NCBI GenBank assembly: GCA_965178125.1
Contig: OZ237745.1
Location: 248,001-312,000 of the forward strand
DNA length: 64,000 nucleotides
Reading direction: 5' to 3'
DNA from: Bilabrum cf. latius
Taxonomy: Eukaryota
Shown here one piece after another: positions 3,501 to 59,556 of the stretch. The notes beneath the pieces are model-generated. The model was not told the origin of the DNA. It worked only from the letters and a program-made list of their open reading frames with translations, and did no database searches. The translations under genes and the position numbers were made by a program. Numbering within the stretch: the stretch's first letter is position 1; each line of letters begins with the position of its first letter.

Positions 3501-3605
3501 CCTTGACCAAGTAGCCCCCCCCTCTAGCTCGGCGGCGCCGCTCACCCCCAAGACTCAGGGCCAGTGGTTCCGCTTGCTGTGTGCTCGGCATCGAACGTAA
3601 CAAGC

Positions 3606-29642: not shown

Positions 29643-29675
<33 letters not shown>

Positions 29676-32478: not shown

Positions 32479-32581
32479 CTGAACGGTACCGCTCGAGCAA
32501 GAGTATGCCTCACGGTTGCATGCCAGTGGCTCCGATCTTCTGTTGGTTGATCGCATTCTCATTCGCTCCAAACCTCATAGA

Positions 32582-34410: not shown

Positions 34411-37400
34411 TCACCCACGCGTCTTTTTGCCTCGTTTCTTCACCACTCGCCGCACCGGCTTCTATCCCCCACCACCGTCAAGCTGGGCACTTCCCCCTGC
34501 CACCGCACTTAATCCACCCGAGGTGCTGGAGCCTCTGAGCCCCGCTGTCCGCTGGGCGGGAGCGCTGGGATTTCTGTCCCCAGCGGCCACGTAGCTGCCC
34601 TTGCTGCTGCCACCGTCGTCTCCTCTCCAGGCTGACTTGACCAGGCTGGGCGTAGGCGCCGCGGTACCTGGTACTGCGCTGCTGCTCCTGCCATGTTCCA
34701 CGCTTGCTGCCCGCAGTTCAATCGATGCATCCTGCGTGCTGCCAGGGATTGAGTGTAGGTCAGACGGAGGTGTCGCCGCGTGCATGCCGGCTGCGGGACT
34801 GCCGGGGTCCGCTGCCGCATGATTTTTACGGCCAGTGCGATGTGAAGACCCGTCAGTCTCCGGGTAAAGCTGCTAGTCGACTGTCTTCCACACGTTGAAC
34901 GGGGAGTCGACAGACGCCCGCCCCCGCTGGAGAGCACCCCACCTTTGCTCTTCCTATCTCACTGAGGCGATTGTGTCACCATTGCGCAGATCAGCAAGCT
35001 TCTGGGCCAGCTGCTTCTGTGAGTATGGCTTGGGCAGAATGCCGTAGAAGCCAGCCTCCCTGTACTCTGGCAGATTCCATGGGTCGTGGTTGGCCGTCAT
35101 GGCGAAGATGGGCACCCTGCATCCCAGCTCAAGGAGGTGCTTGCACACGTCCGTGCCCCTGGAATGTACCATCACGATATCCATCAGGATTGCATCGAAA
35201 CGAGGACCAGTCGGCTCAGGAAGAGAGCTGGCTTTAGAACCGGCTCCTGCCGCGGCGCGCTTCCGCGGGCTGGACTTGGATGGAATGTGACCCCTGCCCT
35301 TCAGCAACGCTTCGCACTGCTGCCCGTCCTCAAGCTCCTACGAAGTCGCACCCAGCCGCTGCAGCATACGGGTAGCCATGCGGCGGAGGGCCCGCTCGTC
35401 GTCTACCACGAGCACATGCATGCCATTCAGCGGTCCAGAGGCGCCACGCGTGTGCAGGCTTTGCCCAGCGTTGGCTTCAGAGGAAGAAAAAGCCGATGTC
35501 TGCACCGGCTCTGGCCTGGTGATGCCAGACAGGCCAGACCGTGCATTGTTGCCTGACGTCTCTGCGCTGGCGCCCCTGCTTGTTCTCTGGACCTTTTGAT
35601 CGCCGGAAGCTGGACCGCTACCTTGGAGGCCTGCAGCAAAAGCCATCTCCAAAGCACGCAGCTGTGCTTTTCTTGAAGTAGCTGTCATTTGTACAGCCGC
35701 GCCTGAAACTGCTGCACCGCCTGCTTGTTGAGATGCTACCGGCTCCTCTTGAACCAGAGCGCCTCTTACGGGTGGCAGTACCAGTTTGCTACCCCCACCT
35801 TCCGGTGCGTCAGTCCCGCGTGCACCCATGTCATCAAGTATTTCTGCAACACCCGGAGCCCCATCTTTCGGAAGTTGGCCCTGCTGGTGATGATCGGTGC
35901 TGTGGCCTGATGCGAGTGCTCCTTCGAGCATCGAGCCAGGATGGGCTCCAGCCGATTCCTGATTGCCTTCGCCTGATGCCATCTGTCTCCTGTCACTGGA
36001 CAGCGACGCGATTGCGGCTTGGTCGAGCGAGGGCCGCCCCCGCAAGAGGTCTGCTTGCCGGCCCATCTGCATGCGTCGAGTCCATCGCCCGCTGGTTGTG
36101 CTTCCGGAGCGGCCGCGCCCGCTGCCACTCATACTACTTAGGCCGGATGCGGGATTTGCGTCGTGACCATCAATTGGGTTACTGTCGCCTTCAATGGCTA
36201 CCTTGAGACCTGACGTTGGTCGTGCAGCGACTGGTCTACTCGCTGCTCGCCGGATGCTGTGGTCGAATTGCCCAGACAACGATCTCAAATGCACGAGCAG
36301 GGCACGAAGCTAATTCCTGGCTAGCCTTACGAGCGCTTCCAGCAGGTGATTTGGTCCAGTGGACGATCGTGAACTGCCATCCTCCTTCGCTTCGTTGTCC
36401 ATGGCTCGGTTGATCACGTCTAGCGCAGCCAGCACCAGGCGCTCTCGTCTGCTATACCTCAGCTCGGCCCGTGACCTCCACTCACTTCTCTTTGGTAATT
36501 GTGCGCCAGTAACCTCACTGCCTGTCAATTTTTCCTTGCTGCTGCCTCCAGACTGAGTCGTACTGGATCCCTTTCCCTTGGTCGCAGCGGGCTGGTCAAT
36601 TCTATCCTAAGCTTCTTGCGAGCCAGAACCTTGCCCAGACAACGCATGCGTGCCGACTGCAGACCCACCCTGAGATCCCTTGGCATCGTTGTTAGCAATA
36701 CTCGACGAGCCGTCAATCTTGCCGAGGCCAGAGTCGGTGAAGCTCCTGAAGTCCTCGCTCCTGCACTGACTCGTGCCCCCGATGGCGCTCCTCCAGTGGC
36801 CTTGCGATCCCCTTCGTCGTAAGTCTCCATGCCTGGAATTGTCAGCGGCGAGGATACCCTCTTCGGATGACGTGCGGCGAACAAGTGCCTTGCCTTGCAT
36901 GCCTGCCGCAGCCGAGTCGTCCCCGCACACAACTGTGGCCGAGCACTCTGCCAGTGCGCCGTCCGGATCGTCTTGTGCTAGCTTGGCGCGTGCCCGCTCA
37001 ATCGCCTGCATCTCCACCTGCAGTCGCTGCTCCCACATGTCAGTCGCCTCCCTTGGCAGCTTGCTCACCGCCCCTGCCTCCATCCTTCGGACCACGCGCC
37101 ACGGGGGCCGCAGCGGCAGTGCCACCTCCAGCACGGTCCTCTTTTTCCTCTTCTCCGTCCTCAGACCGATGGTCCCGCCCATCTGCTTGGTCAGCTCTTC
37201 CGCCATGGCCAGCCCCAGGCCAGAACCTTTCTGCTTGGCAACTGAGCTGGCGCTTCCGTCGGGAGCAGTTGGCTTGAACATGGCTGCTTCGGATGCATGG
37301 CTGGTCAAGGAAGCATACGATCCCACAGAATCACCCTCAATGGCAACCTCGGCACCAGCTCCACCAGCACCACCCGTCTCACCCGGCGTAGATGCCTCCT

Positions 37401-40400
37401 AGCTGCTAGGTACCCCTGCAGCCTGCTTGTCAGCAGCCTCCTTGGCTGACGTCTCGCCCGTGACAAAGGCACCGAAGTATCCGCTCTTCCCATGCTTGTC
37501 ATCGTCCCCGCCAAGGCCTTTACCTGTGTCGATCACCCTGAACACGAGCATTGGAAGCACATAGGACACTTCAACCTTGGTACTGCTTACAGATGCATGT
37601 TTAGCGCCGGCTCGGGCATGCCCCCCTGGTCTTGCGGCCCGATCATCGGAGTCAGGATCGTCCATGGACTCAGATGTGGCAGCGCGAGAGAGCCGCGAAG
37701 TCATCTCTGACTCGAGCTCCAACCCGAGGCCCCTTGCTTGAGTGTCCGCTGGACGCTTGTGGGAGCTTTGCGAGCTGATGGCAGCACTACCGAGGGTCGG
37801 CGGGCCACTCAAAAGGAGCCCAGGTGGTAGTACCCTATCCACCGCGCTAGGCACAGCAGCCATTGCTGCTGCGGATGCACCCCCCCGAGGCGCGATAGAT
37901 GCTTCCTAACAGAACCTACGGGTGTTCCGCAAAACATGGCCACCGAGAGCATTCGGTTTCTTGGCGCGAGCTCGCTCAATGGCTGCCAACAAGCGCTCGC
38001 CTGCATCCCGGGAGCCGTTGCACAGCTCGACGCAGGACTCCAGCTGTTCCTAGCGGTCAGAGCTCCTGGACTGCTGCAGCCGGTACGCACCGCTCTGCTG
38101 GCCTCGCACAGTGCTGGAAGCGCAGCATACTCGAGCTGCTGAAGAGTCCGAATCAGGCGCTCCAGGCTTGCTTATGCCGAGCGCCCACTACGTTTGGTCG
38201 CCATCAACTGCTTGGAACTACTTGCTCTGTTCCGCGTCTCCAGTACCGGACTCGCTGCCTGCAGCGCCTCCGTCTTGGCTCTTCACCCACTGCAGCATCT
38301 TGCTCTCACCGATGGCAGCCAGTGATGGCATCGATGCCATGCCAAGGGATCCTTGCGACTGGTCCTTTCCAACATCATCATAATACATGCGGGCCCACCT
38401 GCTGGACCTGATTTCCTCCTCAACGATCTGCTTGCTGACTGGCCTCAGCCTCACCTGAAGGTCCACCATGATGTACCCCTTCTTGCAGAACTTTGCCGCG
38501 TTTGTCAGGCCGTTGGCGAGAATCTGCGTAATCCTCAGCTCGTCTGCGATCACCACGGGTGGCACAGAGGCAGACACGTGGAACCGAAGAGGCACTTCTG
38601 CGAACGACTGGTGGCTGGAGGCCACTGCCACGATCAACCTCCGGGGGTCCATGGGCGCGGGTGCGATGGGCAGCTTGCCCTGATGCAGCCTGCTGAGGTC
38701 GAGCAGGTCGTTCACCAGCCGATGTAGGGTCTCTGTGCCCTGGTGGATGACGTCCATATCGCCACCACCCGCCTGGATCTGGCCGTGGGCCTGGCCCACC
38801 AGCTGTCTCGCGTGCTGCAGCTGCTGCCCCCCCGCATCCAACTTCCTCTTGGCTGACCCAAGGTCCCGCAGAGCCTTGGCCTGCTGCTCCAGCCGCTTGC
38901 CACCTCGGCTCAACGATCCAGCTGCGGCCGGAGCTTCGCTTGAGTCCAGCTCATCTGACGTGTCGTCCATCTGCGCCGCCGCCAAGAGCCGCTCAGCCGC
39001 CCTCTAACACTGCGCAGCCACCGTCTTATTCTCGACTAGTGCGCTGTCAAGCACGGCCAGAGCCTGTTCGGTGGCCTCCCCCGCGCCTGCCGAGGCCTCT
39101 TTCAGCATGCCCAGGCTGCCGCTGCACAGGTGCAGGGGATTGCGCTGCTCGTGCACCACGAAAGACACGAGGATCTGGTGGGCCTTTTTGGCTGCTTCGA
39201 ATCGAGCCTTCTGCTCCGATCTTTCCCTGTGGTCACGCAGCTGCTGCGCCCTGGACTGAACGAACGCACCTGCCACGAGCATTGTGATGGCGATAGATAC
39301 AAGGATTCCTGCCAGGAGCGGCGCCACGATTGCAGAGTCTCCCTAGTTTGAATAGAACTGATCGGTGATCGCCACGTGGACGGACCACACCCGGTTGCCC
39401 ACCGGGACGAGGTATCCCAGCACCTCTCGCGTGCTCCTCGAGGCGCGGGCCTTAATATAGCTAAGGACCCGCTCCTGAGCCTCGTCGGAGGCCGGGTCAT
39501 CCACCTGATTGACGTCATTGATGGCGTACTGGAACTGACCCAGCCCAGCAGGGACGTCGTGGCGAGGCACCGCATCTGTGCCGACGGAAAACAGGTCAAA
39601 GAGAGGCGAAGTGGCCAGTCGCTAGAATCCAGGAGTTGCTACAGCATAGGCGTACTCATCGTACTCGGTCTCGATTTGTCCGCTGAGCCCGCCGTCCCCG
39701 TCGCTCAGCCTCTCCTCCGCTTCCCGCACCAAGTCGGTCACGTCCTCACTGTAGATGGCCACTGGGGAATCCACGTCGCGCACCAGCTCTGCTTCGTTGG
39801 AGATCGCAGCAAAGAAGAAAACAGCTACTGCGTGCCCCCTCATGATGTGCCCGTTCACGCACCTGCTGCTGCACGGCTCCAGGGGGTGCTCCCTCCTGCC
39901 CTCTTGCACGTCGATGAGGCTCTGGTTGTAGGCAGCCAGCGCGTCTTCTGCAGAAGTGAAGGGCAGGCACACGGCCCTGAAGGCCTCTCCGCAAGCATCG
40001 GTCGAGTTGTGGGTGTACTGCTCCTGCTGCACCACCCTCTAGTCCCCGGTGATGCGGTTGATGCCGGGCGCGATGTCTCCGGCGAGGGCGCCCACGTCGA
40101 TGCCGTCCGCTAGCATCTGCAGCCGGCCTTCGCCCTGCATACCCAAGGAAGAATATACGGGCGCGGCGACAAGGACACCCCTTGCCAGGCCAGTCCTTGA
40201 AACTAGCCGCAGAGGGCCTGTCGTTGCGAACTAATTTAGCCGTGCGGCTGCCTCCATAGCTTGAAGTCTGGGCACGTTTGTGGCCAGGTCCAGGCCAATC
40301 ACGTTTGCCGTTGAACCGTTAAAATCACCGACCATGGTGAGGGGTAAGGCTCGGCGGGCAGCCAGTGCAGTTTGGTTCGCGGCTGCGAGAGGTTCCAGGC

Positions 40401-40881
40401 CGCGACTCCCTATGCCGCGAAGCTCAGTGAAACGGAACCTCGCGCTGTCTGAGTATTCCTCGCTAAGTATTGCTGCTAAAGCATCCATGTGCACTCTGTC
40501 GACCTCTTTGGCAAACCCTACGCCAGAAACAGTTCCAATGTTGCTGCGCGTGACGCGGTCCGCCACGGCTTCGCTGCCCTCTAGGCGCACTCCAAAAGCC
40601 ACGTTCGAGGCAGATGACCCGGACAATGAGACCCGCAGTGCATCTATTTCTGGCAAATGGCTATAAAATGCCTGGACTTGCGCATTCACTCTGAGCTAAG
40701 CCCTCGCTTCAAATGTAGTTAGCACCCGGTCTTGCCTGTTTTCGTACGAAGAAAACGTAATCGCTCCGGTAACCAACAAACAAAGTATAGCAACAACACA
40801 AAGCCACCACACTGGGTGCAACCCGAGCACTGTTGCTACTGGTGGTTCGTCAACGATGCGTTTACCGCTGCCGTCAGTCAT
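34411..40881 (-). CDS. Membrane hybrid histidine kinase 2 (paralog of 7542..14102): TM-CHASE-TM-HisKA-HATPase-receiver, ~2156 aa
   Basis: One frame from ATG 40881 to TGA 34413-34411 through TAGs. Same H-box (FVVHEQRNPLH), N-box, VIDTGKGL, GSGLGLA and receiver motifs; collinear with copy 1 from N- to C-terminus. Confidence 0.9.
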
Positions 40882-41144
40882 GTCGACTGAAACTAGCCGG
40901 GTGAGATACTTCTGGCGAAATGAAGCAGGGAATCAAAAGTGGTAAAAGAGGAGACTATTCGTGGTGCAAACGGTGGCTTCGTCCCGCCGATTTGATCACA
41001 GATTGTGTACGAAATTGCTGTTGCTTTGCGGAGGTCGTTTTGCGACCAAAAACACACGGACTGACCGTCGCCAAATTGCGCAATACGCGCCGGGATCGGG
41101 CGGTGGAAGACAATTCAGACAAATGCAAAACAGCGATAATGAGC

Positions 41145-43313
41145 TCAAGTCTCCATCGCAGCTGCACCGCCGCTGCCTGCCGTGGCATCCGCCTTACTGC
41201 CAGCACCACCAGTCGCTGCCGCACCTTCAGCGGGCGGGTCCGTAGAAAACGGCTTGCTAGGGCGAATCGGGTGCATCCTCACGTACTTGTCGACGTCGAA
41301 CTTCCTCCTCGCGCCATCTAAAGTCATGGGCCGGATCTTGCCGGTCACAGCGGTCTCCTTGAATCCCATGTCGTGCACTCCCATGATCGCCCAGCCGACG
41401 CCGACGAACCCGTTCGGGTCCCGGCCGTCGATCGAGTACCTATCGTTGAGCCGTTGCGCGATCCGAAGCGCGTCCGCGGGCGTTTTGGTCCACTCGAGGA
41501 TCTTCTTGGCCCAGTACATGCGGCACCACCCGTGCATCTTCCCGTCGTGCACCATCTCGCTCTGCGCGGCATTCCACAGAGGGTCGTGCGTCCTTGCGCG
41601 CTCCAATTCCTCCTCACTGTACACTCTCCCCCTCGCGTCCCCCGTATGTTCCGCAAGGGTCTGCCTGGCCCATTGCGCGGCGCCCTCAAGGCTATCGTAC
41701 TAGGGATTGTACAAGCAGAAATTGTCGCTGATCTCGCGCCGGACGAGCACTTGCTCGGCGAACGACTGAGCAGACGTGCTCGCCTTCTTCACGAACAGGC
41801 CCTAAATGTCCGTCTCCGTGATGCGCATCAGCTCGAGGAGCACCCGCTGCGCCGAAATCTGCCCGAAGTGGATGTAGGGGCTGAGTCCGGAGAGCGCGTC
41901 GGGCTTGGTTGGATTCCTGCTGCTCTCTGCGTACCTGAGATAGGGTCGAGACAAGTACCGAGCAAGCGTCTCTTCGGCTGCTCGTTCCCCTGGCCTCGCA
42001 AAGGACACCTCCGGCACGCTCCAGTCGATCTGCAGCGAGGCCGCCACCTGCACCCAGTCGATCCAGCGGCCCTCATCGTCGAGCTGCGCCACGCAGGGAA
42101 CAGCGTCCCCGTCAAAGTCGCTCGAGGCCCGCCCGAACACGCCTTCCGCCACGTCTCCACTCCCTCCTTCTGCCGCTGCCGCTCCACCTGTCGCCGCCCC
42201 GCTGTCGGCAGCCCCTGCCCCAGCCCCAGCCCCAGTCCCCGCGGCCTCTCCCCCGGCACCCTCCATATTCTTCTTCCCCACTGGCATGGACCCATCGCGC
42301 TACGCCGCCCACGACTTCCCGAGGATCTCCGAGTCGTCCACCGCACTCGTCATCTTGATGAGCTGCGGGAATGCAGTGAGGTAGCCGTCAAGCCAAGAGT
42401 GCACCCTGGGCCTGAACGTCCTGGCGCCCACCTCCTGGCGGTCGGATGCCACCCAGGCTGGCACCACGTTGTGCGCGTCCACCTCGACTACCGCGGTCTC
42501 CTTGGGCACGCGCTGGCACACCTGCCGCTTCCAGTCCAGCCCCACCCGCAGCGGGCTGAAATCGGCAACGATGGTGCTTGCGCCGACGGCGCGGGCATAC
42601 CTGGGCAGCTGCTCCGTGGGGTTCCCCAGGAGGACTCGGAATGATATTCCCAGTGCGTGCAGGTCCTGCTCCACGTACCTCAGGCCGCGCAGCATGAAAC
42701 CGTACTGCCGCGCGGTGGCCTGCAGAAACTTCGGCACGAGGCAGAACACGACCACTAGCGTGGTCTTCTTCCGCATTGCCTGCGACTACGCGTGAACCAG
42801 CGCCCAGTTGTCCCTCACCCTCTGGTCTCGAGACATCCACAGGATCACAGGCCCTTTCGCATCCTTGGATCCCGGCTTCAGCCGTCGCCTCCGGCCCTTC
42901 TCCATGGATACGCTCTCGTCATAGTCCCATTCAACGCTATCATATATTCCATTGATACTTATTGGAGCGCGAAGACGCCGCAGCAATCGGGTGTACGGGT
43001 GCTCGTTGGGGTCGCCCGCCGACGCTTCAACAACAGCGGCATGGCGCGAGTTTACGGCGGCAATTCGCTTCAGCGACTGGTCGTGCCACAGCCTGAGTAA
43101 ACTAGCGCATGCCGATTTAACATCGCTCTGCTTTGAAGCCCGCATGAGCCGTCCGACCACGACGCCTGCTCGGCTTCGCTTCAGGGCCGAGACCGTGACT
43201 GGAACGTACTGCAAGCTTTCCAATACCTACTGCACCATACCAGCGTCATCACGAGCAAGTGACCGTTTCAAGTGCGCCAAATGAATCTTCAACGATGACA
43301 AGGGCGTTGTCAT
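41145..43313 (-). CDS. PHR: Class II CPD photolyase with an N-terminal TFIIS-N-like domain, ~722 aa
   Basis: One frame from ATG 43313 to TGA 41147-41145 with five TAGs. [95 protein letters not shown]. Confidence 0.95.
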
Positions 43314-43594
43314 GGCAGACAAAATGGGCCCCCGAGCTTCATGCGGATTATACCTTTAACAACTCCTTACAATGTGGCCGAACGAAAAAGTCACCGAATT
43401 CCGCTCACCAATAGGGCTACACGTGTACAAGCTGCTGCCCACTACCTTGCGTTGATCCTAAATACTCCTGGAATCCATACGTTTGTGTTGGGCCACTAGG
43501 TGCGAACCCAAATCTTGGCTAGTGCGACCGCCGCGGATCGGTTTAGGCAGCATCACCATTGGCCGGTCACCAGAACGCCAGCAAGAGCACACTA

Positions 43595-46500
43595 ATGTCA
43601 TCTAGAGCATCTAGCATATCGTCGGGCAGGGATATTGCTGTTCAGGCAGACGACGTCGAAATTCCTGCCATCTGGGTCAAAACAAAACTCCCAGACGATG
43701 AGGGTGGGCATGAGTACTTTTACCACGCACAGACGCGGGAATGCAGCTATAGCCCACCCCCAGAAGGAGAGAAAGTTTGCACGCAGGAAGAGTTCGACGC
43801 CCTCGTTGACGGAGATGCAGAGGGAGACGAGGACGAAGCTGATGAGATTGTCCTTACTCGAGATACCATCGATGACTGGAAGTTCATAACAGATGAAGAC
43901 GGCGATTCGTTTTGGTACAATAGTAAAACCAACAAGTCCATGTGGGACAACCCGCACGAACTATTGGCGAGGTAGCTGGGAGACGCTCCGCCGGCAGACA
44001 CATCCGCAGGTGCCACCCAGACCGTGAAAGCATTGCAAGACGAAGTGCAGTGAGTCTATGTCGCTTGTTCGCTACGATCCGAAGAGATGCGCAGAGTCAT
44101 CAAATGCTTGCGGGCGAATGGTTTGAGCAGTTGATGCAAGGACTGTAGGATGTGTCTTGACGCTGCAAGTCCGCCGCTGCAAGCGTAAACCAGATCAAGT
44201 TTTCCCGTATCGCTTCGTGCAACTCCGGAGTCAATCTCGCAGGCAGCTCAAGAAGCAGCTCGAAGACGCGAAGGCTCAGCTGAAATCGTCAGAGGAACGC
44301 CGCATCGCTGCCGAGGAGCGGGCAGACCGGCTCGAGGCTGAACTGAAGGACGTGCGAACGAAGAGTCCCGTCGGTAAGAGACCACCAAAGTAGAAACCAG
44401 CTACTAGTAGCAGCGGGGACTCGTCGCCGCGGTCGGGTGGATCCCCGACTTCGCAAGGAAGCAAACGAGCCGGAAACGCACTAGGAGGCAGCAGCGGCAG
44501 CGTGATCGCTACAAGCAGCAAGCAGCCGCCGGGGAAGGACGATATGTCGCCTTCCGCGTTTTCCAAGGGAGCTCCATCCTCCGCAAAGGCCGGCAAACCG
44601 TCTGCTGGCCGCGCGCCGCGGGCGCCGAGCGGCCAGCTGTCGACCGGATCCGTGGCTCCAGACCTGCTCCCCCGAGCCCGCAAGACGCAGAGCTTCCGAA
44701 GACGCTCCGACATATTCGACCTCAACGGCGAGGCGGACGGCATCGTCAGGCGCAGAGCCCGGTCGACGGACTCGTCACACGGCGGCAGGTCCGCTTCAGG
44801 AAGCGCCCAGGCATTGGCCCTGGGAGCGGTGGCGGCGGGCTCCTCTTCAGGGGAGGAAGACTCGGATGATGAGGAGCTGGTCGCGGGAAGCGGGGGCGGT
44901 TTCCCCAGCGCAAGTGCCCAGTACGAGGACGAGAAGGAGGACCCCAGGCGGGGAGACGCCGGACCCGTGGGCGACGTCACCGGGGAGCAGCTCTCATTCG
45001 TCAAGAGCGTACCGCTGTTCCACTCCTTGACCGAGGCGCAGATCGGGGTCCTGCTCAGGAGGCTGAGGAGGGCGCGATTCGCGGCAGGTGACGCGATCAT
45101 CAAGCAAGACAGCGTCGGGGCGAGGTTCTTTGTGATTGCCAGCGGGCGCGTGTCGGTGCACAAGAGCAGTGGAGTGCCGCCCGCCGAGCAGGTCAGGCGC
45201 TTCCGCTTGGCGCAAAAGGAGGACGGCGATGGGGAGGGCACCCAAAGCCCGGAGGCAGCCAAAGCCGGTGGAGGTCTCAAGAAGTCCAGCAGCTTCGGTG
45301 CATTGACCGGCGGGGGGGCAGTGGAACGTCTGGCGGCGGACCTTGCAGGGGGGAGGCCTAAGCCAGGGCACGTGCTGCTGGGGTCCTCGGCGCGTCAGCT
45401 GGGCTCTGGCATGGACGGTCAGGGGCGCGGGGGCGCCACGGGTGGCGTGGACATGCTGCGAGAGCTGGCCAAGCAGGTGGAGGGTCCCGAGGCCAGCTCT
45501 GAGGTGCTGTGGGGGCCCCAGGTGGCCGAGCTCTCCAAGGGATTCTTCTTCGGCGAGCAGAGCCTGATGACCAATGAGCCGAGGTCGGCAACCTGCGTCG
45601 CGGCAGTGGACACGGTCTGCTTCACTCTCGACAGGGAGGGCTTTTCGGATGTCCTGTCGGACGTGCAGGACCTGCTGGGCAAGTCGTCCAAGGAACACAA
45701 CACGGCGGAGACGCCAGAGGCGCTCGCTCTGGCCAAGCATGTCAATACGTACGCAGTGCTGCTTGCGGCAGCTCGGAGAGAGATCGTGGCGGGGGGCGCC
45801 TCGAAGGAGGCTGTGGCTCGATCCTCGGCGGAAGGGGGGGGAGACCTGGACGAGCTGGCCGGAGAGCCTGCCTTGGAGTGCAGGGTGGAGAACGACGCCC
45901 TCATGCCGGCGAGTCGCGCCCTCGTGGAGTCTATGACTGTGTTTGCTCCCGAGCACGGGGCGATCGACATGCTGCAGCGGTGCACGAGGGTGCTGTCCGG
46001 TCTGCTGAACGTGGAGCACTGCAGCCTCTTCATCTACGACGAGGACTCGCAGGAGGTTCTGGTGCACGGTGGATTCGAGTCGCAGGTTCGAGACCCGGAG
46101 AGGCGCGGAGCACTGAGCGACGAGGACGAATTCGAGCAGAGGATCAAGGAGCACCACAGCAGCACGGGGAGGAGGACGAGCCTCACAGGCAGGGGAACCG
46201 TGCTGACGCGCGTGCCGGCCCGGCAGGCCGGCCCCGTGGGATACGTTGCCGCTCGTAGGGAGACGGTCGTCGTGCCCGCCACGGAGTTTGACCTGCGGTT
46301 CCAGAGCCCCGGGGCGGGTGCTGCGGCTGGGGACGGGGGGGAGGCCACCGAGGAGGGCGGGCTCGAGGCGGCTGCAGCGGCCAGCAGCACGCCCGGCGTG
46401 GCCTGGCACGAGCTGGCCTCATCCTCCGCCCAGGAGCTGGGTTGGGACATGACGTACCAGAACCTCGCCAGGCGAGCTGTGGCGGGCGGGCTGCGCGCCG

Positions 46501-49500
46501 GTGGTGGCGTTGGCAACTCTGGGGATGGAGGCGACGATGACGACGCTGAGTGGATGGCCGGTCCAGGCGGTAGTGGTGAGGATGGCGACGACGGCGAATT
46601 CGAGCTGGATAGCATCGCTCTATGTCCGCTCATCGATTCATTTGGGAAGGTCATGGGCGTGCTCGCTGCAGCCAATAAAGGGAAGGGCTGCATGGGCGAG
46701 ACGGGCAGCGACCAGCAGCCCATCGCTGCGGCTGCCGCCGCGGCCGCGGCCGCCGCCGCAGCCCATGCAGCCGCGCAAGGCCGTGGCAAGCGGCCCTCCG
46801 CGAAGAAGGGCGCGCGACGGCTCTCGGCCATGCGATCCTACAACATGTTCGGCGGTGATGAGGACTCTACGCTGGAATCGAAGAGTGATGCGGGTGGCGG
46901 CCGCCGCCGGGCGTCCTCGTCTGTGAGCGGTCGCTCCCGCAGCGTGTCGGGCACGGTGCGTGCACTGACCGTGTCCCTGGACCACATCACCGCGCGTGAT
47001 GAGCTGGTGATCGAGGGTGTCGCCGAGGCCCTCGCCCTGGCACTCGAGCAGCGCAGCACGGAGTTCTCCGCCCTCTTGGGCGCCTCGCACACGGTACCTC
47101 TGCACACCCTCAGCAGCCAGTTCAGGGTGCAGCTTATGGGCGCGAGGGGCTTGCCTCCCAGCAAGGGCTGTACCATCTCCAAGTCCACCAAGCGCGCGAA
47201 GCGGGTGCCGTCCGGGTCCAAGGTACACGTCGAGGTTAGCCTGTTTCACGGTGGGAAGAGCCTGTGCCCTGGCAAGTCGGCCGACCCCGCTCCTCTCGTG
47301 CTCACGACTCGCGAGGACAAGATGAACACGCTGTCTTGCTCGTGGGCGTAGCACGTCTCTATGGACATCCGGTACTGCAATCTCCCAGCCGCCACAAGGT
47401 GCGTGTTCAACGTGAAGCACAGCACGGATGAGCCAGCGGGGTGGGCCGGCCTCTCCCTGTTCGACTTTCAGCAGGTCATGCGCTGCGGTGAGATCGAGCT
47501 GAAGCTTTGGCCCGGAGCAGCGGACGCTCACCTGGCGGCCACGACCACGAGCCTCAGCAACGACCTCGACGACAGCGCACCCGTCCTCATCGTCGGGCTG
47601 CATCGGTTCCGCGCACCCGTAGCTCGCGTTGCCGTGCCGCAGGGGTTCCTGCAGGCGGCAACGCGAGCTGCCGCCGCCAAGCAGCCTGGTCTCGCCGCGG
47701 CGCTCAAGGCGCACGCCGGCACGACCGAAGGTGGGATTTCTGCCGTTTCGGGAAGCGGTGGGGCGGGCGCTGCCGGCGGGGCTGGCGATGGAAGCGATGG
47801 CTCGTCGGGCGGTCGCGGCAGCGTGGTCGGTGCTACCGTTAAGGGTCCACGGGTGCGCAAGACAGCAAGCAGGGCAAGCGGGATTGGGTCCGCGGGCAAG
47901 TCTGCTGCGCCCGAGCCTCCGGACGTTGGACGGATCGTCACGTCGCCCGCGTGGTTTGACGATGCCTGGGCAGCACCCCTGCTGCTGTCCCGCGCGACCA
48001 AAGGCGAGTACTCCGAGTTGAGGGACAGGCTGGCCCACGTCGCCAAATCGGACCCTCTGTACGAGCTCAGCCCCGAGGAGGTGGACATCGTGTGGCGCTG
48101 CAGGCAGCACATTACCAGCGAGCCCAAGCTGCTTCCCAAGTTCCTGCTCGCCGTCAACTGGGCCTCCGGAGCCGCGGTGGCGGAGGCATACCACCTCCTC
48201 GATCAGTGGAGCCCGCCCTCACCCCTGCAGGCACTGCAGCTTCTAGACAGCCACTTCCCAGACCCCAGGGTCCGTGCCTACGCCGTGGAGAGGCTGGAGG
48301 AGATGGACGAGTCGGAGCTTGGGCAGTACCTGCTGCAGCTGTCGCAAGTGCTCAAGTATGAGCTCTTCACCGACTCGGCTCTCGCCCGCTTCCTCCTTCG
48401 CCGATCGCTGAGGCACCCTCGCGTGATCGGTCACCAGCTCTTCTGGCTCCTCAAGGGCGAGATGCATATCTCGGAGGTTGCTCCTCGCTATGGCGTCTTC
48501 CTAGAACAGTACCTGCGGAGCTGCGGGTCCCACCGCACGGAGCTGGGCCACCAGATGTTTGTCATGGCCAAACTGGAGCAGACCGCCATGCAGGTCAAGG
48601 CGGTGTCGGGTGGCAAAGAAGCGAGGAAGCGGTGCATCAAGGAGAGCCTTCCCCGCATCGTGTTCCCTGATCGCTTCCAGCTGCCTCTGTCTCCTCACAT
48701 GGTAGCCAAGGGGTTGCTTGTGGACAAGTGCCGCGTGATGAGCAGCAAGAAGCTGCCGCTGTGGCTCACCTTCGTGGCAGCGGATCCGGCCGATTCTTAG
48801 CCCGGAGGATCGGCCGGGGCGTCGGCTCCAGCAGCGAAGGCTTCCTCCGATGGCGGCTCTGCTTCCTCTGGTGCCGGCGCTGGGGGCGATATGGTAGCAG
48901 CGAAGAAGCCACACGAGACGCTCAGCGTTCTGTTCAAAGCAGGCGACGACCTGCGGCAGGACCAGCTTACTCTGCAGGTGCTCAAGGTAATGGACAAGCT
49001 GTGGAAGAAGGAGGGCCTGAATCTGAACATGAATGCCTACGGCTGCGTCAGCACGGGCGACGAGATCGGCATGCTGGAGATCGTGCTGGATTCGGCCACA
49101 CTCGCCGGTATCCTGCAGGAGAGTCTAGGCGAGGGCAGCGGCATTTTCCATAAGCTGTCTGCCGCCATGACTGCGTACCAGGACGACGTGATTCGGACCT
49201 GGCTGGAGGCGCAGCGAGACAACAAGTCTAACTGGGCGCAGGTGCAGGAGACTTTTTTGCTGTCGCTCGCTGGGTACTGCGTAGCAACGTATGTGCTGGG
49301 GATTGGCGACAGGCACAACGACAACATCATGATCCGGAGGGACGGGGCATTTTTCCACATCGACTTTGGCCATTTCCTGGGCAACTTCAAGAAGAAGTTT
49401 GGGTACAACCGGGAGAAGGCTCCCTTCATCTTCACCCCGGCACTCGCGCGCGTGCTGGACGGCACTGATTCCGCTACGTACAGGCGCTTCGAGGCGGTCT

Positions 49501-49745
49501 GCTGCAGGGCGTACAACGTGCTGCGGAAGCATTCGAACCTCATCATCACCCTGTTTTTCCTCATGGTGAACTGCGGGATCCCTGAACTACGGAGGCCCCA
49601 GGACATGAAGTGGCTGCAGGACAAGCTGATGCCCGACCAGAGCGATGAATTCGCTTCGGAACACTTTAAGGAGCAGCTCAAGATTGCAGTAAGCACGCGA
49701 GCTACTCAGCTGAATGACGCGGCACATCTGTTTGCCCACGCTTGA
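43595..49745 (+). CDS. Phosphoinositide 3-kinase (class I/II-like core) with N-terminal WW x2, coiled coil, cNMP-binding and GAF domains; exons 43595-44049 and 44243-49745; ~1985 aa
   Basis: WW motifs W...EYFYHAQTRECSYSPP and W...SFWYNSKTNKSMWDNP. cNMP: VPLFHSL, IIKQDSVGARFFVIASGRV, FFGEQSL...PRSATC. GAF: CSLFIYD, VGYVA, CPLIDSFGKVMGVLAAANK. C2; helical domain LQLLDSHFPDPRVRAYAV; kinase FKAGDDLRQD, LGIGDRHNDN, HIDFGHFLG. Ends at TGA. Confidence 0.9.
44050..44242 (+). other. Spliceosomal intron of the PI3K gene (193 nt)
   Basis: GTGAGT...CTCGCAG; removal gives a continuous coiled coil ALQDEVQQLKKQLEDAK. Confidence 0.8.
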
Positions 49746-50020
49746 TTTGTATTGTGAATCGGCGGGGCTTCCTTGAAGTCTCTTGTCGCGTGTACTATTT
49801 CACTGCTTTTTTCGGACGCATTCGGTTGCCTCTAGTTCTACAATTTTCGCTTCCGGCAGTCTGTGGCAACTCCAAATCAGAGACATCGTCACGTGCTGCA
49901 AGAGCTGTGCTTGCACATTGAAAATCCCCCACGGTCGACAACGTGAACACGTAGAAAACGTGAACCAATATGAAATTGAGGTAGTTGCGCACTTGAGACA
50001 CTCTATTGCCAGCCTTTGGT

Positions 50021-52960: not shown

Positions 52961-53143
52961 CAGCCAGCAGCTCCTAATTCCATCCAGAGTGGGTCACTAG
53001 CGATGCGATAAAATGAAATTCGATTTGAACGTGCTTGAGACTTATGGTATGGCTTGGGCGCCGCGCTATTTGCTATATGTTTGTCTCAATCGCGCACCAC
53101 TGCGGATCTGGCCGAGCGTAGCTTCGGCTAATACTGGAGCAAA

Positions 53144-53726
53144 TCATTCAGCGTGCTCCTTCTTTTCCAGCTGCTTGAGCTCCGAATTAAGCAATGGCCG
53201 ATTGGTCTGCAGCGCAATGAGTCCGCCGATCATCACGAAATTCTTCAGCATCTGAATGATGTTGGCCTGGTCATCAGGACCTTTGGGCAAGTGCATGATG
53301 AAAGTGACTGGGATCAGGTAGGCCAGCAAGGTCGGCACTGCGCAGTGCTCAAGTCCTACCAGTAGAAGAAGACCTCCAAGAACTTCCATCACAGTGGATG
53401 TGAGCAAAATGCCCCTCAGGACCATCGAAGTCTCCATGCCAAATCCGCCAGCGATTTGCTCGATAGTCGGCATCAGTCCAGCCGATTCCATCCCACCTGT
53501 GGACACCAATCATGCAAGTTAGTAGGCATTGAGGTAATCCAATGGAATCGTACAGCAATCAACGAATCATTTCGGATAGAGTTGGCAACGCCACAAACTG
53601 CAACTCACCTTTCATGTACGCCTGTGTACCGTCAAGATTCATGAACTTCATGGCTCCCATCAAAAAGATGACACTCATCAAAATGCGTGAAATCCATCGC
53701 ATACCAGAAGCTCCGACACCGCTCAT
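53144..53726 (-). CDS. DoxX/SURF4-family membrane protein; exons 53726-53609 and 53496-53144; ~156 aa
   Basis: SRILMSVIFLMGAMKFMNLDGTQAYM, EVLGGLLLLVG, YLIPVTFIMH, MLKNFVMIGGL; ends at TGA. Confidence 0.85.
53497..53608 (-). other. Spliceosomal intron (112 nt) with a canonical CTACTAAC branch-point sequence
   Basis: GTGAGT...CTACTAAC (53525-53518)...CCACAG; in-frame join YMKGGMES. Confidence 0.88.
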
Positions 53727-53895
53727 ACCTCCGTACTGCTGAAACTGCCGCCCAACCGACGTGGCCGTGGCGCCATTGCTCCGATCGAATGACCATCATG
53801 AGGCAAATTTCTGAAGATGCCACCTGGCATTGTGGCATCATTCTATGCGAATAGGGCCAGACAAAGATATGGACAAGGTGAACTGTTTGACTTAT

Positions 53896-55422
53896 TCACG
53901 ATTTACCAGGCCTGGGCGGCAGCACACCTGGCGGCAGCATGCCGCCAGACCCGGGCCCGGCACCGCCTCCAGCGCTGCCATTACCTCCAACCCCCGCGAT
54001 CCCACTCGTCACACCACCATGCATCGGACCCATAGGAGCCCCTCCATACCCAGGTGGGGGACCCATTGCGCGGGGGGGTCTGCCGAAGCCAAGGCCGGGT
54101 GGGGGCCCCATGGAGGCAGCACCGCCACCCACGCCGGCTTGCCCTCCCATCGGCATTCCCATCCCTGGCGCAAACCCCATCCCAGCCCCCATACCCATCG
54201 GTGGTCGCATCCCCATCCCCATTCCCGGCCCCATCCCCGGCCCCGGTCCCATGCCCATCCCCACGGGGGGGCCCCCATACCCACCTGGCCCCCCACCCGG
54301 CCCCGACGCAAGTGGGGGTCCAGTGCCACTGAAGCCAGCTCCATACCCGGGAGCCCCGCCCATGCCAAACGCCATGCCAGCACTGCTACTCGAGCCCTCC
54401 ATGCCAACATGCCCAGAGCCAGCACCACCGTGCGATGCAACCTGCCCAGAGCCAGCACCACCGTGCGATGCAACCTGCCCAGAGCCAGCACCACCGTGCG
54501 ATGCAACCTGCCCAGAGCCAGCACCACCGTGCGGTGCAACAGAGCCTCCACCGTAGTACCCATCGGTGGTGGGCCCCACGCCCATGCCCATGTTCATGCC
54601 CATGTCGGCTCCCATGGCTGTTGCTACACCAGTGCCCACACCACCGGCACCTGCAACCGCCACATCGGGCCGGGCAGTTGCCTGTGCCGCCACCCCTGCC
54701 AGCGCTCGGCCCGCCGATTGGGGTGCCTGCACAGGCTCATCTGGGCTAGCCGCGAACATCGTGTGCGGCTGTAGCGTCCGCTCCGGCTTTTTTGCGGCCG
54801 CCAGCATTCTCTCCGCCTGCGAACCGTGCCTCTCTCTCGAGCCGGGCTTCATGGCATACTGCACCTGGATGGGGCGGCCGCACAGGTGCCTGCCGTGCAT
54901 TGCTTCGATCGCCAAGTCTGACGATTCAAAGGTTTCGTACGAGCAAAAGCCGAATCCTCTTGAATTTCCCGTCGCAGGATCTCGTGCAATGTGCGCGTCG
55001 CCGTTGAGTGCGCCGAATGCCGAAAAGGTATCGTGAAGTACTTTCTCGTCAACCTCTGGCGACAGGCCTCCAATCCATAACTTGGCCCCCACGCCTTCAT
55101 CGCGAAAGCCTTTTCCATCACTGCTACCAGTATCACTACGAGTGACTCGAATGGGCCGTCCAAACAATCGAACCATGTTCATTACTTTGGTTGCGTACTC
55201 GGCGTCCAATTCTGTTTGATACTCGACAAAGCCGTAGCCCCTGTGCCCACCCCGGGCCGGATCCTTCGGCAATGAAACGCTTACTATTCGACCAACCTGG
55301 ACCATTAGCTCGTACAACAGGTCTTCGTCCACTTCGTCGGATATGCTTCCAACGAACACTGTGGCAGCCTAGTTGCGCTGTTCAATTATGTCGGCCCGCT
55401 TTGAGCTTCCAGACGCAGCCAT
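53896..55422 (-). CDS. SF3B4: Splicing factor 3B subunit 4 (SAP49): two RRMs and a G/P/M-rich tail, ~508 aa
   Basis: ATG 55422; EQRN(TAG)AATVFVG, GYGFVEYQTELDAEYATKVMNMVRLFGRPIRV, VGAKLWIGGLSPEVDEKVLHDTFSAFG, ERHGSQAERMLAA; ends at TGA 53898-53896. Confidence 0.96.
54411..54540 (-). repeat. 33-bp coding tandem repeat, about 4 copies, encoding VASHGGAGSGQ in the SF3B4 tail
   Basis: The + strand unit GCCCAGAGCCAGCACCACCGTGCGATGCAACCT starts at 54411, 54444, 54477 and 54510. Confidence 0.92.
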
Positions 55423-55686
55423 GATGCAAAATAAATGATATGCGTGCGCGCAATTTGTAGAAATTCGCGCGTGGATGTGGGGGTTGACTGTTGTGTCGGT
55501 GCTCATGTGACGATTGAGCTGTGGCACATCATGCGCCGTGTCCTCTTAATGTACTGTGAATTCGGTGGCTACGCTACTGCTTAAGAACAATCCCATTTTG
55601 TTAAGCTGGCCATTCCAAAGACTCGCAAGGAGCCAACACCCAGAAGGGCCAGCCGAATATTGCAAGAGCGGCAGAGGAACCAACCT

Positions 55687-57447
55687 TCACTTGCCCTCGC
55701 CGGCGGCAGCAGCCTCCGCAGCAGCAGCAGCCGCCGCCTTGGTCGGCACCTTGCCAGTGTACTCCTGCGCCTTGTCCAAAGCGCCCTGGACGTCCCCCAG
55801 CAAGTCGCTCTCCGTCTCGATTCCCACGCTCAGACGGATGAGGTCGTCGGTGAGGCCGAGCTTGGCACGGTGCGCCGGGGGAACAGAGGCGTGGGTCATG
55901 ATGGCAGGGCACTCGGCCAACGACTCTACTGCGCCCAGGCTCTCCGCCAGCACGAACACCTTGAGCTGCTCCAGGAAATGCTGCGCGCCCTCTAGCCCCC
56001 CCTCGATGTAGAAGGTCACCATGCCGCCGAACCCGCTCATCTGCTTCTTGGCCAGCTCGTGCTGCGGATGCGACTCGAGGCCGGGGTACACCACTTTCTT
56101 CACGAACGGGTGCTTCTCCAGCAGCTTGGACACCGCCATGGCATTGGACGCGTGCCTGTCCATGCGCACATGGAGCGTCTTGAGGCCCCTCAGAGCGAGG
56201 TAGGCCGCGTGCGGGCCCGCCACCGCGCCCACGCCGTTCTGCACAAACCTGAGCTTCTCGTCGAGCTCGTCGGAGCGGGTGGTCACCACGCCCATGACCA
56301 CGTCAGAGTGCCCGTTGATGTATTTGGTGACGCTAGACATGGAGAGGTCTGCTCCCAGGTCCAGGGGCTTCTGGAAGTGGGGGGACATGAAGGTGTTGTC
56401 AACCGCCAGGATCGCACCGTGCTCGTGCGTGACCTTGGCGAGCGCCTCGATGTCGCTGATCTTGAGCGTGGGGTTGGTGGGCGTCTCGACCCACACCAGC
56501 TTGGCGGGCTTGGCCTTCAGCGCGGCCTCTAGATTGGCGGGATCCGTCATGTCCACGAACTCAAATTCCATGCCGTACGTGGGAGCGGCCGTCTTGATCA
56601 TGTACCTGTGGGTTCCTCCGTACATGTCGTCCATGGCGATGATCCTGTCTCCGGACTTGAGCAGGTGCAGGATGGCGCTCGTGGCAGCCATGCCCGATGC
56701 GAAGGCGATCGAGTGCTTGCCGTTCTCGGCGGCGGCGACGGCCATCTCGAAAGCGGCACGCGTGGGGTTGTTCGTGCGCTGGTACCTGCGGGAGTGAATT
56801 CTAGAACCAGGGCATGGGGAGGAGCAGCGCATGGCCAAGCGGCGCTCTCGATCTCGATCTCGATGGGCGAATTGGGCGCTACGGGGTATGTGCTGGGAAC
56901 TCGGGATAGTGCGGCTGCTCAGCTCACTCAAATCCTTTGCCGTAGCTGTATGCCATGTCTTTTCCAGTGGCCAAGCCGGGAGTCAGCTGGGCGTATGTTG
57001 TCGCTAGAGAGATCGGTGGAGCCACTGCCCCAGTTTGTGCGTCGGGAGCCTGCGGTGTTCCAGGCGCAACCAGACAAATTTTATGCTAAACATGTATCAT
57101 TTGGGCAGAACACTAGCCCGGAAACTAGCACAGGTGGGGGTGAGACGAAGGGAACACTCGCAAGATTCACTGGCCCCAATAGCCGCAATCACACAGACAA
57201 ACCAGCGAATGTTGCATGATCTGTGCAGATCCGTACTGAGGAAATGCTACTAGATGAACTGTAGGCACGACCGCTGCTACATAAACTCTGTCTACAAGTT
57301 CACAGCAAGGCGACGTCACTCCAAGTCGTCAGCTAAAGGTTTTGTTCACCTCACCTGGCCAACGTGAATGATCTTGGTAGCAAAGCCGGCGTCAGCAAAG
57401 GCTGCATCACCGTGACCGCTGCTTCCAGATCCAGATGCGGCTGCCAT
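55687..57447 (-). CDS. CTH: Cystathionine gamma-lyase (PLP-dependent transsulfuration enzyme); exons 57447-57355, 57049-56928, 56785-55687; ~437 aa
   Basis: FATKIIHVGQ|APDAQTGAVAPPISLATTY...GFE|YQRTNNPTR, FASGMAA, VETPTNP, VDNTF, PLP-Lys motif SVTKYINGHSDV, LAESLGAVESL, LIRLSVGIE. Ends at TGA; no TAG codons. Confidence 0.93.
56786..56927 (-). other. Spliceosomal intron 2 of CTH (142 nt)
   Basis: GTGAGC...CCCGCAG; removal restores GFEYQR. Confidence 0.9.
57050..57354 (-). other. Spliceosomal intron 1 of CTH (305 nt)
   Basis: GTGAGG...ACCGCAG; removal restores IHVGQAPD. Confidence 0.88.
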
Positions 57448-57620
57448 GATGATTTACTGGTTGCTCGAAAGGATGTCGCCGCTTCGGCAGGGCAAGCGCA
57501 AATTTAATGTAACGAGCCCTTATCGGGAAATTGCAGACACGTGTATGCAAGTTCGGCAACTGAAGCATTTGCAAGGCAATTAAGGGTTGTCGAACAAATT
57601 GTATTATCTTTAGGGCTGCA
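57448..57620. promoter_or_regulatory. Putative bidirectional promoter region between the divergent CTH and PDI-like genes
   Basis: 173-nt AT-richer gap between head-to-head ATGs. Comparable divergent gaps at 18880-19098, 23867-24139 and 43314-43594. No specific element identified. Confidence 0.45.
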
Positions 57621-59177
57621 ATGTAGTCTTTGCTAGCAGTTGTTGCGCTACTATCCGCTGCATCCGTCATTTCGGCAGATGACAGCACCAGCACGGAGTC
57701 CACGGGACCAGTTCGTCTTGCTCCCGGCGAGATCATCGAATTGAGCGATAGTACATTCAATTCCACGCTTGAGACAGTAGAATACATGTTTATTGATTTC
57801 ATGTCCAAAAGCTGTGGTGTGTGCCGCAGGCTCAAGCCAGAAATTGAGGAGGCTGCCGCGGTCTTGCACCAGCAGGGCAGCTAGGCTTCGGTAGGGAGCG
57901 ATGAGTCTATTCTGAAGGGCGTGCAGTTCGTCCAAGTAAACGCGAACATTCAAGAGGAGCTATCCCTGCGGTTTGATATCAAGGCGACCCCCACTTTTAT
58001 GCTGCTGACCGGTGGCAAGGCGAAGTCTTCCAAGAAGTTTGTCATTGAGCAGCAGCCGACGTCCGGCGGGCTGGTCAGCGAGATTCGTTAGAAGCTTGGG
58101 CTAAAGCCAGTATCGAGGGTAAAATTAATTCCGGAATCTTGGAGCACAACGGACGTGTTCGGGTGGGTCTTCTGGAGGGGAGGCTCCACCGGGCGCCTGT
58201 CCACGACGCTGCTGTACTTTGCCCCTTCGGTAGATGCCACGGGCGAAGGCCCCAAGGCCGCAGCGGCGCTGGAGAGCGCGCTTCACGACCTCTCTAAGCT
58301 CCTGGGGGAGGATCCAGTTACCTCGTAGGTCAGGATCGCAGTTGTGCCCAAGTCGAGGGCAGACCTGCGCAAGGCATTCAGGCTGGGCGACGAGCCAGAG
58401 TCCATGCAGGGGCCCAGGGCGTTCCTTTACAGAGAACACGACGACCCGAAGAAGCTCGAGGTTCCCTTGGAGGTAAAGCCGACCCACGAGGAAACGGTCG
58501 GCGCGCTCGCAGCCTGGATCAGGGAACAAGACGTGCCCCTCGTCGACTTTCTCGAGGACGCGGCGGCCCTGAAGCGGTACAGGCAGAGGCAGGGCCTGGA
58601 TTTCGCCATGGTGTTCGTCCCGGAGGACGCGATCGAGATTCCTCCCGCGCGTAAGGACCTCATGAAGGACCTGGGCGAGCGGGTGAACGGCTGGGTGGAG
58701 CAGGGCTTGCTGTCCAGGGGCCAGCTTACCTTCTTGCTCGTGAACGGGCAGAAGTTCGCTGCCTGGTTCCCTGATTTTGGGCTGGAAAAGAGAGTCCTCC
58801 CAGCGATGGGGATCCACGAGCGCGGTGGGTAGCAGCTATGGGGCGAGGAGGCCGCCGCTGCCGCGCTGGAGGGGTCGCCCATCGACCGGATGTACGGGGC
58901 GGCAGGCAAGGAGGCCAAGGAGTGGGAGGCTGACGACACGGAGGCGTACAGGAGGCACAAGAAGCAGATCGAGGAGCAGAAGGCGGCAGAGGAGCACGAC
59001 GAGAAGGTAAAAAGGGGCGAGGCCACGCCCACGCCGATGCCGACTCCCAAGCCGTTCGGCAATGTGCCAGAGGTGCCACCCTCGGCGAGGGTTGAGCTGC
59101 CGTACGCCGAGATGGAGCAGCTGCTTCGGAAGCGAGCCAGCTTGGCAGAGGGCGGCAAGCGAGCGGAAGAGCTCTGA
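57621..59177 (+). CDS. ER protein disulfide isomerase / thioredoxin-fold protein, ~518 aa
   Basis: ATG TAG TCT TTG... gives signal peptide MQSLLAVVALLSAASVISA. IIELSDSTFN, FIDFMSKSCGVCRRLKPE (CxxC), RFDIKATPTF. C-terminal AEEL resembles a KDEL-type retention signal; ends at TGA. Confidence 0.82.
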
Positions 59178-59556
59178 GGTCTTTCGGGAAGAGCCGCTAG
59201 CACTTCATTGGTTGGAACGGGGCCAGCAACGTGCCGCGAACAGAGCGGTGGGTCCAGCTGCCCGCCGGGGGGGGATTTGGGCTGGCTGGCCGATTGATGG
59301 CGATGATGAGACTGCGGGGAGCTGTGCGATGAGCATGTAATTGCGGCGACCGCTCCACGTGGGTTTCATCGAATATCATTAGGGCTTTGACTACATTCGT
59401 CTGCAAGGATAGGCTATCGACAACTTGAAGGCCGTGATGCTGTGGTCGCCGCGCGTACTGCAGTGCCCGCAGATGCTTTCTGGTTCCGCTACCCTACCCG
59501 GACCTTCTCTTACAAAATTATAAGGAAATTCAGTCACGTGGAACTAAATCCTTCCC

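Follow-up and report, generated by a model that had tools for sequence, protein, structure and literature searches.

Meaning of an in-frame TAG in SF3B4

SF3B4 is an essential splicing-factor gene, and its copy in the 64-kb stretch of DNA analysed here (the window) raises the question of what a TAG at its 18th codon means. The gene lies on the minus strand and starts with an ATG at 55422-55420. Translated with the standard code it reads MAASGSSKRADIIEQRN, then a stop, then AATVFVG. An earlier reading, made from the sequence alone, had described an ATG at 55422 and a TAG at 55371-55369 within EQRN-stop-AATVFVG, and exactly these letters were found. The frame has no other interruption and its 508 codons are open up to the TGA at 53898-53896 (Table 1).

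Table 1 Features of the window that are discussed in the text
Feature	Position	Strand	Remarks
SF3B4 (SF3b49/Hsh49) CDS	53896..55422	-	508 codons, followed by TGA; RRM domains 1 and 2; Gly/Pro/Met-rich tail; one in-frame TAG
In-frame TAG of SF3B4, codon 18, read as Gln	55369..55371	-	ortholog column, CAG in L001, X5 contig
SF3B4 terminator TGA	53896..53898	-	SF3B4 of L001 likewise ends in TGA
CAA (Gln69) of SF3B4	55216..55218	-	TAG opposite in L001; coordinates derived from the codon number
CHASE hybrid histidine kinase	34411..40932	-	17 in-frame TAGs; TGA end
Paralogous CHASE hybrid histidine kinase	7674..14102	+	16 in-frame TAGs; TGA end; start approximate
Class II photolyase frame	41145..43676	-	TAGs e.g. 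at 42788-42786, 42302-42300, 41804-41802, 41702-41700; TGA end
cNMP-binding/PI3K frame	44127..49745	+	3 in-frame TAGs; TGA end; extent is that of the frame
Purple acid phosphatase-like (PAP) frame	32483..34285	+	5 in-frame TAGs; TGA end
PDI-like thioredoxin protein	57564..59177	+	5 in-frame TAGs; AEEL then TGA; Pfam Thioredoxin E 9.5e-13
Cys/Met PLP enzyme (CGL), upstream of SF3B4	55592..57463	-	Cys_Met_Meta_PP E 3.6e-136; stop TGA 55689-55687
CGL introns	56784-56925, 57049-57353	-	spliced out in X5 and X6 contigs
Small membrane-protein gene, downstream of SF3B4	53050..53731	-	intron 53494-53605 spliced out in X5 and X6 contigs

The protein has the features expected of SF3B4, i.e. two N-terminal RRMs (two Pfam RRM_1 domains, E 1.7e-34), the conserved RNQ(D/E)AT-Y-G entry and best similarity to SF3B4. 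Among solved structures its top phmmer match was residues 12-207 of human SF3B4 (5z56_4, E 1.2e-61); the matches also included yeast Hsh49 (E 3.1e-23). From a large protein collection, 2,115 candidates were drawn and 960 of them were hits; many of the matched proteins are called SF3B4 in their source annotations. The best 120 of the 960 hits were aligned; they are 52-59% identical to the window protein, with the exception of one predicted protein, P0001, at 82%.

The TAG had been proposed to stand at a conserved Gln of the orthologs. In the alignment it lies under the Q of ERNQDATVYVG, which is Gln15 of human SF3B4, and 118 of the best 120 of the 960 hits have Q in this column, as the proposal had it; of the other two, P0006 has H and P0001 a gap. 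No second SF3B4 copy was found in the 64-kb window, where a tblastn search with the RRM region returned the gene itself and a next hit with E 2.2.

Constraint upstream of the TAG and transcripts of the locus

A counterpart of the locus in a close relative is the 7,049-bp metagenome contig L001, whose SF3B4 is 86% identical to that of the window and whose gene order is the same: PDI-like protein, Cys/Met enzyme, SF3B4 and small membrane protein. Comparison of the two SF3B4 genes showed that, of codons 1-17, seven are identical, nine are synonymous and one holds a conservative replacement (K>R); the counts for codons 1-95 are 38 identical, 47 synonymous and 8 changed. The 60 nucleotides 5' of the ATG match at only 18 positions. 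The stretch ahead of the TAG is rich in synonymous differences and the region before the ATG matches poorly, and therefore this stretch is translated in the frame of the downstream RRMs.

Contigs from four sequencing runs belonging to four studies (X1, X5, X6 and X7) were compared with positions 52500-57500, and no differing letter was found over the region in any of them. X1 contigs are contiguous like the genome and retain three introns. Contigs of X5 and X6 skip 53494-53605, 56784-56925 and 57049-57353, each of which is bounded by GT..AG on the minus strand, and they end at gene borders, e.g. at 55592. The run search returned no run that both matches the locus and is recorded as RNA; the run labels are guesses, and X5 was labelled ‘probably DNA’. 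Because of the spliced introns and of the contig ends at gene borders, we infer that X5 and X6 are RNA runs.

The TAG codon itself is covered by contigs of X1 and X5 without a difference. One X5 contig (record 12) spans 54504-55398, has no joint and no differing letter, and extends 27 nucleotides past the TAG, so the transcript keeps the codon and no intron excises it. This transcript cover consists of one contig from one run, and contigs are blind to rare variants; those of X6 and X7 either stop short of the codon or offer no useful bridge over it. An intron that removes the TAG was thus looked for in the run contigs and none was seen. The earlier view that a pseudogene is unlikely holds: the gene is not a pseudogene, given the constraint on codons 1-17 and a locus that is present in spliced contigs with its TAG neither spliced out nor edited.

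TAG in other genes of the window

The earlier reading dealt with the TAG in SF3B4 as a single site; it is one among at least 59 in-frame TAGs distributed over at least nine genes of the window. When frames of at least 150 codons are considered, the standard code allows a maximum length of 986 codons, and with TGA as the sole stop the maximum rises to 3,532; the long frames of the TGA-only type are rich in TAG. Pfam domains lie downstream of TAGs, often of several, in the histidine kinases (CHASE/HisKA/HATPase/receiver) and in the PI3K, photolyase, DAK, PAP, ABH and PDI frames; the photolyase frame matches the rice photolyase with E 1.8e-122. DAK and ABH stand for dihydroxyacetone kinase and alpha/beta hydrolase.

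Nine supported coding sequences with 9,814 codons, some of whose starts are estimates, contain 59 TAG, no TAA, 290 CAG and 80 CAA. TAG thereby amounts to 13.8% of the Gln-type codons. Its distribution within the genes is even, with 11, 10, 11, 12 and 15 TAGs in successive fifths of the coding sequences. The codon evidence comes from the 64-kb window and the 7-kb contig of the relative. In the window, in-frame TAG is widespread in conserved genes, as it is under NCBI table 15. The GC content of the window is about 60% (GC3 0.68); ciliates, by comparison, are AT-rich. The three introns near SF3B4 are of the GT-AG type and measure 112-305 nucleotides.

TAA and TGA as stop codons

TAA was found in frame in none of the 9,814 codons of the nine coding sequences and out of frame in 68 of 19,610 triplets. 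If TAA encoded Gln, the share of CAA (22% of CAA plus CAG) would predict about 16 in-frame TAAs, and the probability of finding none is about 1e-8.

All nine counted coding sequences of the window end in TGA, as do the Cys/Met enzyme gene and the small membrane-protein gene, and the homologies of the PI3K, photolyase and DAK frames reach near their TGA-closed ends. The SF3B4 and Cys/Met enzyme genes of L001 also end in TGA. The other two genes of this contig show TAA at the corresponding place. The small gene reads KKHK-TAA directly after its conserved C-terminal block, and the PDI gene reads SEEL-TAA, followed by three codons and a TGA, where the window PDI reads AEEL-TGA. A retrieval signal of the KDEL type must be C-terminal. 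The SEEL tail is KDEL-like and hence C-terminal, so TAA terminates the PDI of L001. Two long frames of the window that carry no annotation, 3507-7319 and 59548-61791, have TAA as their stop, which is at most suggestive of TAA termination in the window organism.

On these comparisons TGA is taken to be a terminator, and TAA to be no sense codon and still a terminator; for the window organism the latter is read from its absence in frame and from the two unannotated frames that it closes.

Close relatives and the amino acid at TAG

The clearest information on the amino acid comes from close relatives. At SF3B4 codon 18, L001 has AAC CAG GCT where the window has AAC TAG GCT. Conversely, SF3B4 of L001 has a TAG of its own, in GYGFVEF[TAG]TELD, which faces CAA69 of the window (position 69 against 68, local identity 0.92), and two CAG codons of the small membrane-protein gene of the window face TAG in L001. 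TAG, CAG and CAA are thus interchanged between the window organism and L001 in both directions.

The four genes common to both contain 14 sites at which TAG in one organism faces another codon in the other. Seven of these sites have a Gln codon as partner; the partners at the remaining seven are K, S, I, G, T, E and R, each once. In the window/L001 alignments the self-conservation of Gln is 0.56 and its background frequency 0.028. With substitution frequencies drawn from these same alignments, the log-likelihood of the 14 sites is -37.3 for Gln, -46.5 for Lys, -50.5 for Glu and -61.3 for Ser, and Leu is outside the eight best residues.

Close kinship is also seen in a photolyase fragment, P0188, of which 228 of 248 residues are identical to the window protein and which has Q at the window TAG 42302-42300. 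Judged from these sequence comparisons, the close relatives settle the amino acid at TAG as Gln, the residue that the sequence-only reading had named from the SF3B4 site. P0188 ends exactly before the window CAG at 42032-42030; such an end fits a gene call made with the standard code if the organism of P0188 had TAG at this position. P0001, the SF3B4 hit with 82% identity, is a predicted protein with a start further downstream, and its N-terminal truncation is attributed to an in-frame TAG of the L001 type (GYGFVEF[TAG]TELD).

Distant homologs and paralogs gave a mixed picture. At photolyase residue 21, a TAG in the window, Q is the plurality residue (54 of 133 non-gap sequences). At residue 383, also a TAG, N is found in 47, D in 17, H in 15 and Q in 8 of 143 sequences, and the rice enzyme has Q. 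The column of one PI3K TAG holds E 12, Q 10 and K 7 times, and another PI3K site is within an insert. No conserved column was found at the five PAP sites among six homologs, and the DAK site is in a non-conserved column with F or K in the solved kinases. Between the two histidine kinase paralogs, TAG in conserved neighbourhoods faces GAG twice and CAG, TCG, GCA and TAG once each, and over all 29 TAG sites it faces CAG four times and TCG four times. These pairings are mixed (CAG 4, TCG 4, GAG 2), so they do not decide on the amino acid.

Genetic code and decoding machinery

Taken together, TAG very probably stands for Gln in the nuclear genes of this organism generally, with TGA and TAA retained as stops, a code of the NCBI table 15 type; the choice of Gln is a comparative one. 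With this code, the TAG of SF3B4 is a normal Gln codon inside a gene that is intact, transcribed and under selective constraint.

According to Panek et al. 2017 (PMC5304391), in the part that deals with decoding, an organism that translates UAG yet stops at UAA needs a tRNA with a CUA anticodon, which for Gln is one base away from tRNA-Gln(CUG). Weakened recognition of UAG by eRF1 is probably also needed, and the same part of that paper points to T32G in the GTS motif of Iotanema spirale. The window organism would likewise use such a tRNA-Gln(CUA), whose anticodon pairs with UAG and does not pair with UAA. Its eRF1 would have lost efficient recognition of UAG and retained that of UAA and UGA. 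tRNA scans of the window and of six related loci found no tRNA gene, an Rfam scan of the window and L001 at the gathering thresholds gave no match, and the 64-kb window contains no eRF1 gene. Genomic DNA is available for this organism, and the predicted tRNA-Gln(CUA) and the change in eRF1 are therefore directly searchable, which was out of reach for Panek et al. 2017 (PMC5304391) with transcriptomes only.

Alternative explanations

A code in which TAG is ambiguous, with Gln as its meaning within genes and termination at certain gene ends (the Condylostoma, karyorelictid or Blastocrithidia type), is highly unlikely, and no positive sign of it was seen. One histidine kinase gene (HK_A) has a TAG two codons ahead of its TGA, so that either codon could be its true end, and the sample consists of about 15 gene ends. 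None of the nine window coding sequences, the Cys/Met enzyme gene, the small gene and the four genes of L001 needs a TAG stop, and the density of TAG, as counted by fifths, does not drop toward the ends of coding sequences. There is only a very slight chance that TAG encodes an amino acid other than Gln; Glu or Lys would then be the most plausible. The GAG codons that face TAG twice in conserved blocks of the histidine kinase paralogs, the PI3K column with E ahead of Q (12 vs 10), and the one K and one E partner among the 14 sites shared with L001 could be cited for it. The SF3B4 column, however, is free of E and K in its 119 residues (best 120 of 960 hits), Q is the partner at 7 of the 14 L001 sites where each other residue occurs once, the log-likelihood of Q exceeds that of K by 9.2 and that of E by 13.2, and P0188 has Q at a window TAG.

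A table 6 code, with both TAA and TAG read as Gln and TAA scarce through high GC, is scarcely credible. It would draw on the genome's GC content of about 60% with GC3 0.68, and on the TGA ends of every examined window gene. About 16 in-frame TAAs were predicted, however, and none was seen in 9,814 codons although 68 occur out of frame, and in L001 TAA comes directly after the SEEL tail and directly after the conserved end of the small gene. There is practically no chance that a local defect or artefact accounts for the TAG, be it a pseudogene, a misassembly, an intron or RNA editing that takes the codon out, or a true start downstream. Such explanations build on the fact that the standard code breaks the frame at codon 18. 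Against them stand the same letters in contigs of independent runs, the X5 contig that runs through the codon unbroken and without any joint or changed letter, the purifying selection on codons 1-17, and the recurrence of in-frame TAG in at least nine genes and in the relative L001; a downstream start would in addition lose the conserved RNQ-ATV-VG entry into RRM1.

Comparison with known codes

With Gln at TAG as the preferred reading, the nearest equivalent among known nuclear codes is that of I. spirale (Fornicata), for which Panek et al. 2017 (PMC5304391) describe UAG as Gln and UAA and UGA as stops. In both organisms UAG alone would have passed to Gln with UAA kept as a stop, and the same prediction of a tRNA-Gln(CUA) and a changed eRF1 applies. 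In the description of PMC5304391 UAA is the primary terminator of I. spirale, whereas the examined genes of the window organism all end in TGA. The two organisms are unrelated: stramenopile sequences are the nearest to SF3B4 of the window, and the GC content of the window organism is about 60%.

Table 15 is also the code given in the relevant part of McGowan et al. 2024 (PMC11687900) for the phyllopharyngean ciliates Hartmannula sinica and Trochilia petrani and for Protocruzia tuzeti, where UAG is Gln. As far as that part describes them, these ciliates share with the window organism UAA and UGA stops, no sign of a dual meaning (here among about 15 gene ends of the window and L001), and UAG that is spread like a synonymous Gln codon. 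The C-terminal alignments presented there are overwhelmingly UAA (PMC11687900); the window, in contrast, is dominated by TGA ends and has GT-AG introns of 112-305 nucleotides.

Among the organisms listed in PMC5304391 as using table 6 (UAA and UAG both Gln) are many ciliates, hexamitin diplomonads, some green algae and Amoeboaphelidium. They share UAG as Gln with the window organism, which differs by the lack of in-frame TAA (0 of 9,814) and by the TAA stops seen in L001. UAG is given as Leu for rhizarian exLh and phyllopharyngean MAGs and as Ser for Scotinosphaera in the corresponding sections of PMC5304391 and PMC11687900. In these lineages UAG is uncoupled from UAA as in the window; the residue in the window would be Gln, and Leu and Ser are weakly supported there.

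Lineage and significance

Among named sequences, SF3B4 of the window is nearest to those of the stramenopiles Chrysophaeum, Dictyocha, Pelagophyceae and Cafeteria (54-58% identity), and plants follow at 54-56%. Since the plant identities are close behind, this placement is a hint only. Placement through a protein atlas gave only generic PI3K clusters. The organism belongs neither to the ciliates nor to the fornicates; it may be a stramenopile. The code variant is common to at least two related organisms. We consider the chances about even that the window organism and the L001 relative form a clade, perhaps within or near the stramenopiles, in which UAG alone was reassigned to Gln independently of ciliates and fornicates. 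A search of Creative Commons papers in PMC and of bioRxiv found no published report of a code with UAG alone as Gln in stramenopiles or similar protists.

Nuclear changes of UAG with UAA kept as a stop are rare. Those named in the consulted part of PMC11687900 are to Gln in Iotanema, Protocruzia and two phyllopharyngean lineages, and to Leu and Ser elsewhere. If the present case is independent, a GC-rich, TGA-terminating and intron-bearing protist would test whether such a change needs AT bias or UAA-dominated termination. If the reading is true, the organism would offer a GC-rich contrast to theories that link the reassignment of UAG or UAA to AT pressure.

The same codon table is of interest for giant viruses. 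Code 15 is among the codes tested in the 2026 catalogue GVMAGs V2 (PMC13524828), a passage of which states that all confirmed giant-virus isolates come from hosts with the standard code. The viruses with code 15 and the window organism have the same codon table; the latter differs in being cellular, a eukaryote that has introns and genes for the spliceosome. A cellular lineage that reads TAG as Gln is a candidate kind of host for giant viruses that do so, and, more speculatively, the organisms described here could be such hosts. The code also bears on databases, as gene calling with the standard code already shortens public proteins of the clade, e.g. P0001 and P0188.

Occurrence in other samples and databases

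Sequence of the window organism was found letter for letter in four sequencing runs, X5 to X8, which are filed under other organisms (coded B, C and D), so the organism seems to accompany other organisms' cultures or samples. Public protein predictions from its relatives, namely the SF3B4 entry P0001 and the photolyase fragment entry P0188, are cut off at TAG codons because gene calling used the standard code.

An 11-residue unit occurs four times in tandem in the SF3B4 tail, and contigs were broken or mis-joined there in all four runs, from four studies, that were aligned to this region. The resulting 'skips' in run contigs are effects of assembly at this repeat and do not represent introns. 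Among contigs of the RNA-like runs, that of the small membrane-protein gene is the deepest by a wide margin, with a word depth of about 600 in X5. Pfam gave no match for this gene at E 0.01; the gene is conserved in L001, the syntenic metagenome contig of a close relative, where two TAGs face CAG codons of the window.

Gene families and gene structure

Features of the window (SF3B4 unit, GGAGSGQVASH)
Feature	Position	Strand
Hybrid histidine kinase, very large (CHASE, HisKA, HATPase, receiver)	7674-14102	+
Sir2-family fragment	21896-23496	-
DUF268 fragment	25030-25539	+
Upstream low-complexity frame, perfect repeats	25976-30073	+
Hybrid histidine kinase paralog, very large (same domains)	34411-40932	-
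Class I-like PI3K fused to N-terminal cyclic-nucleotide-binding domain	44127-49745	+
Downstream low-complexity frame, perfect repeats	49997-52957	+
Small membrane-protein gene, one intron of 112 nt	53050-53731	-
SF3B4 tail repeat	54400-54580	-

The two histidine kinases are identical at 1,182 of 2,001 aligned residues. Long near-identical blocks adjoin diverged low-complexity parts, a pattern that suggests a recent duplication or gene conversion. The architecture of the PI3K fusion is common to its closest database proteins, which often have GAF domains added and come mostly from metagenomes or transcriptomes.

Of the two long low-complexity frames, one carries an (AP)n run and the other ten copies of AAATEP and a poly-Q run directly after a TAG. 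No family match was obtained for the upstream frame; the downstream frame gave a weak JmjC/cupin match. The Sir2-family and DUF268 fragments look like exons of intron-containing genes. Some genes of the window are not single long exons. The frame at 3-3500 (+) ends in tandem stops (3498-3506), two TGAs separated by one codon, and the long frame that follows shares its phase.
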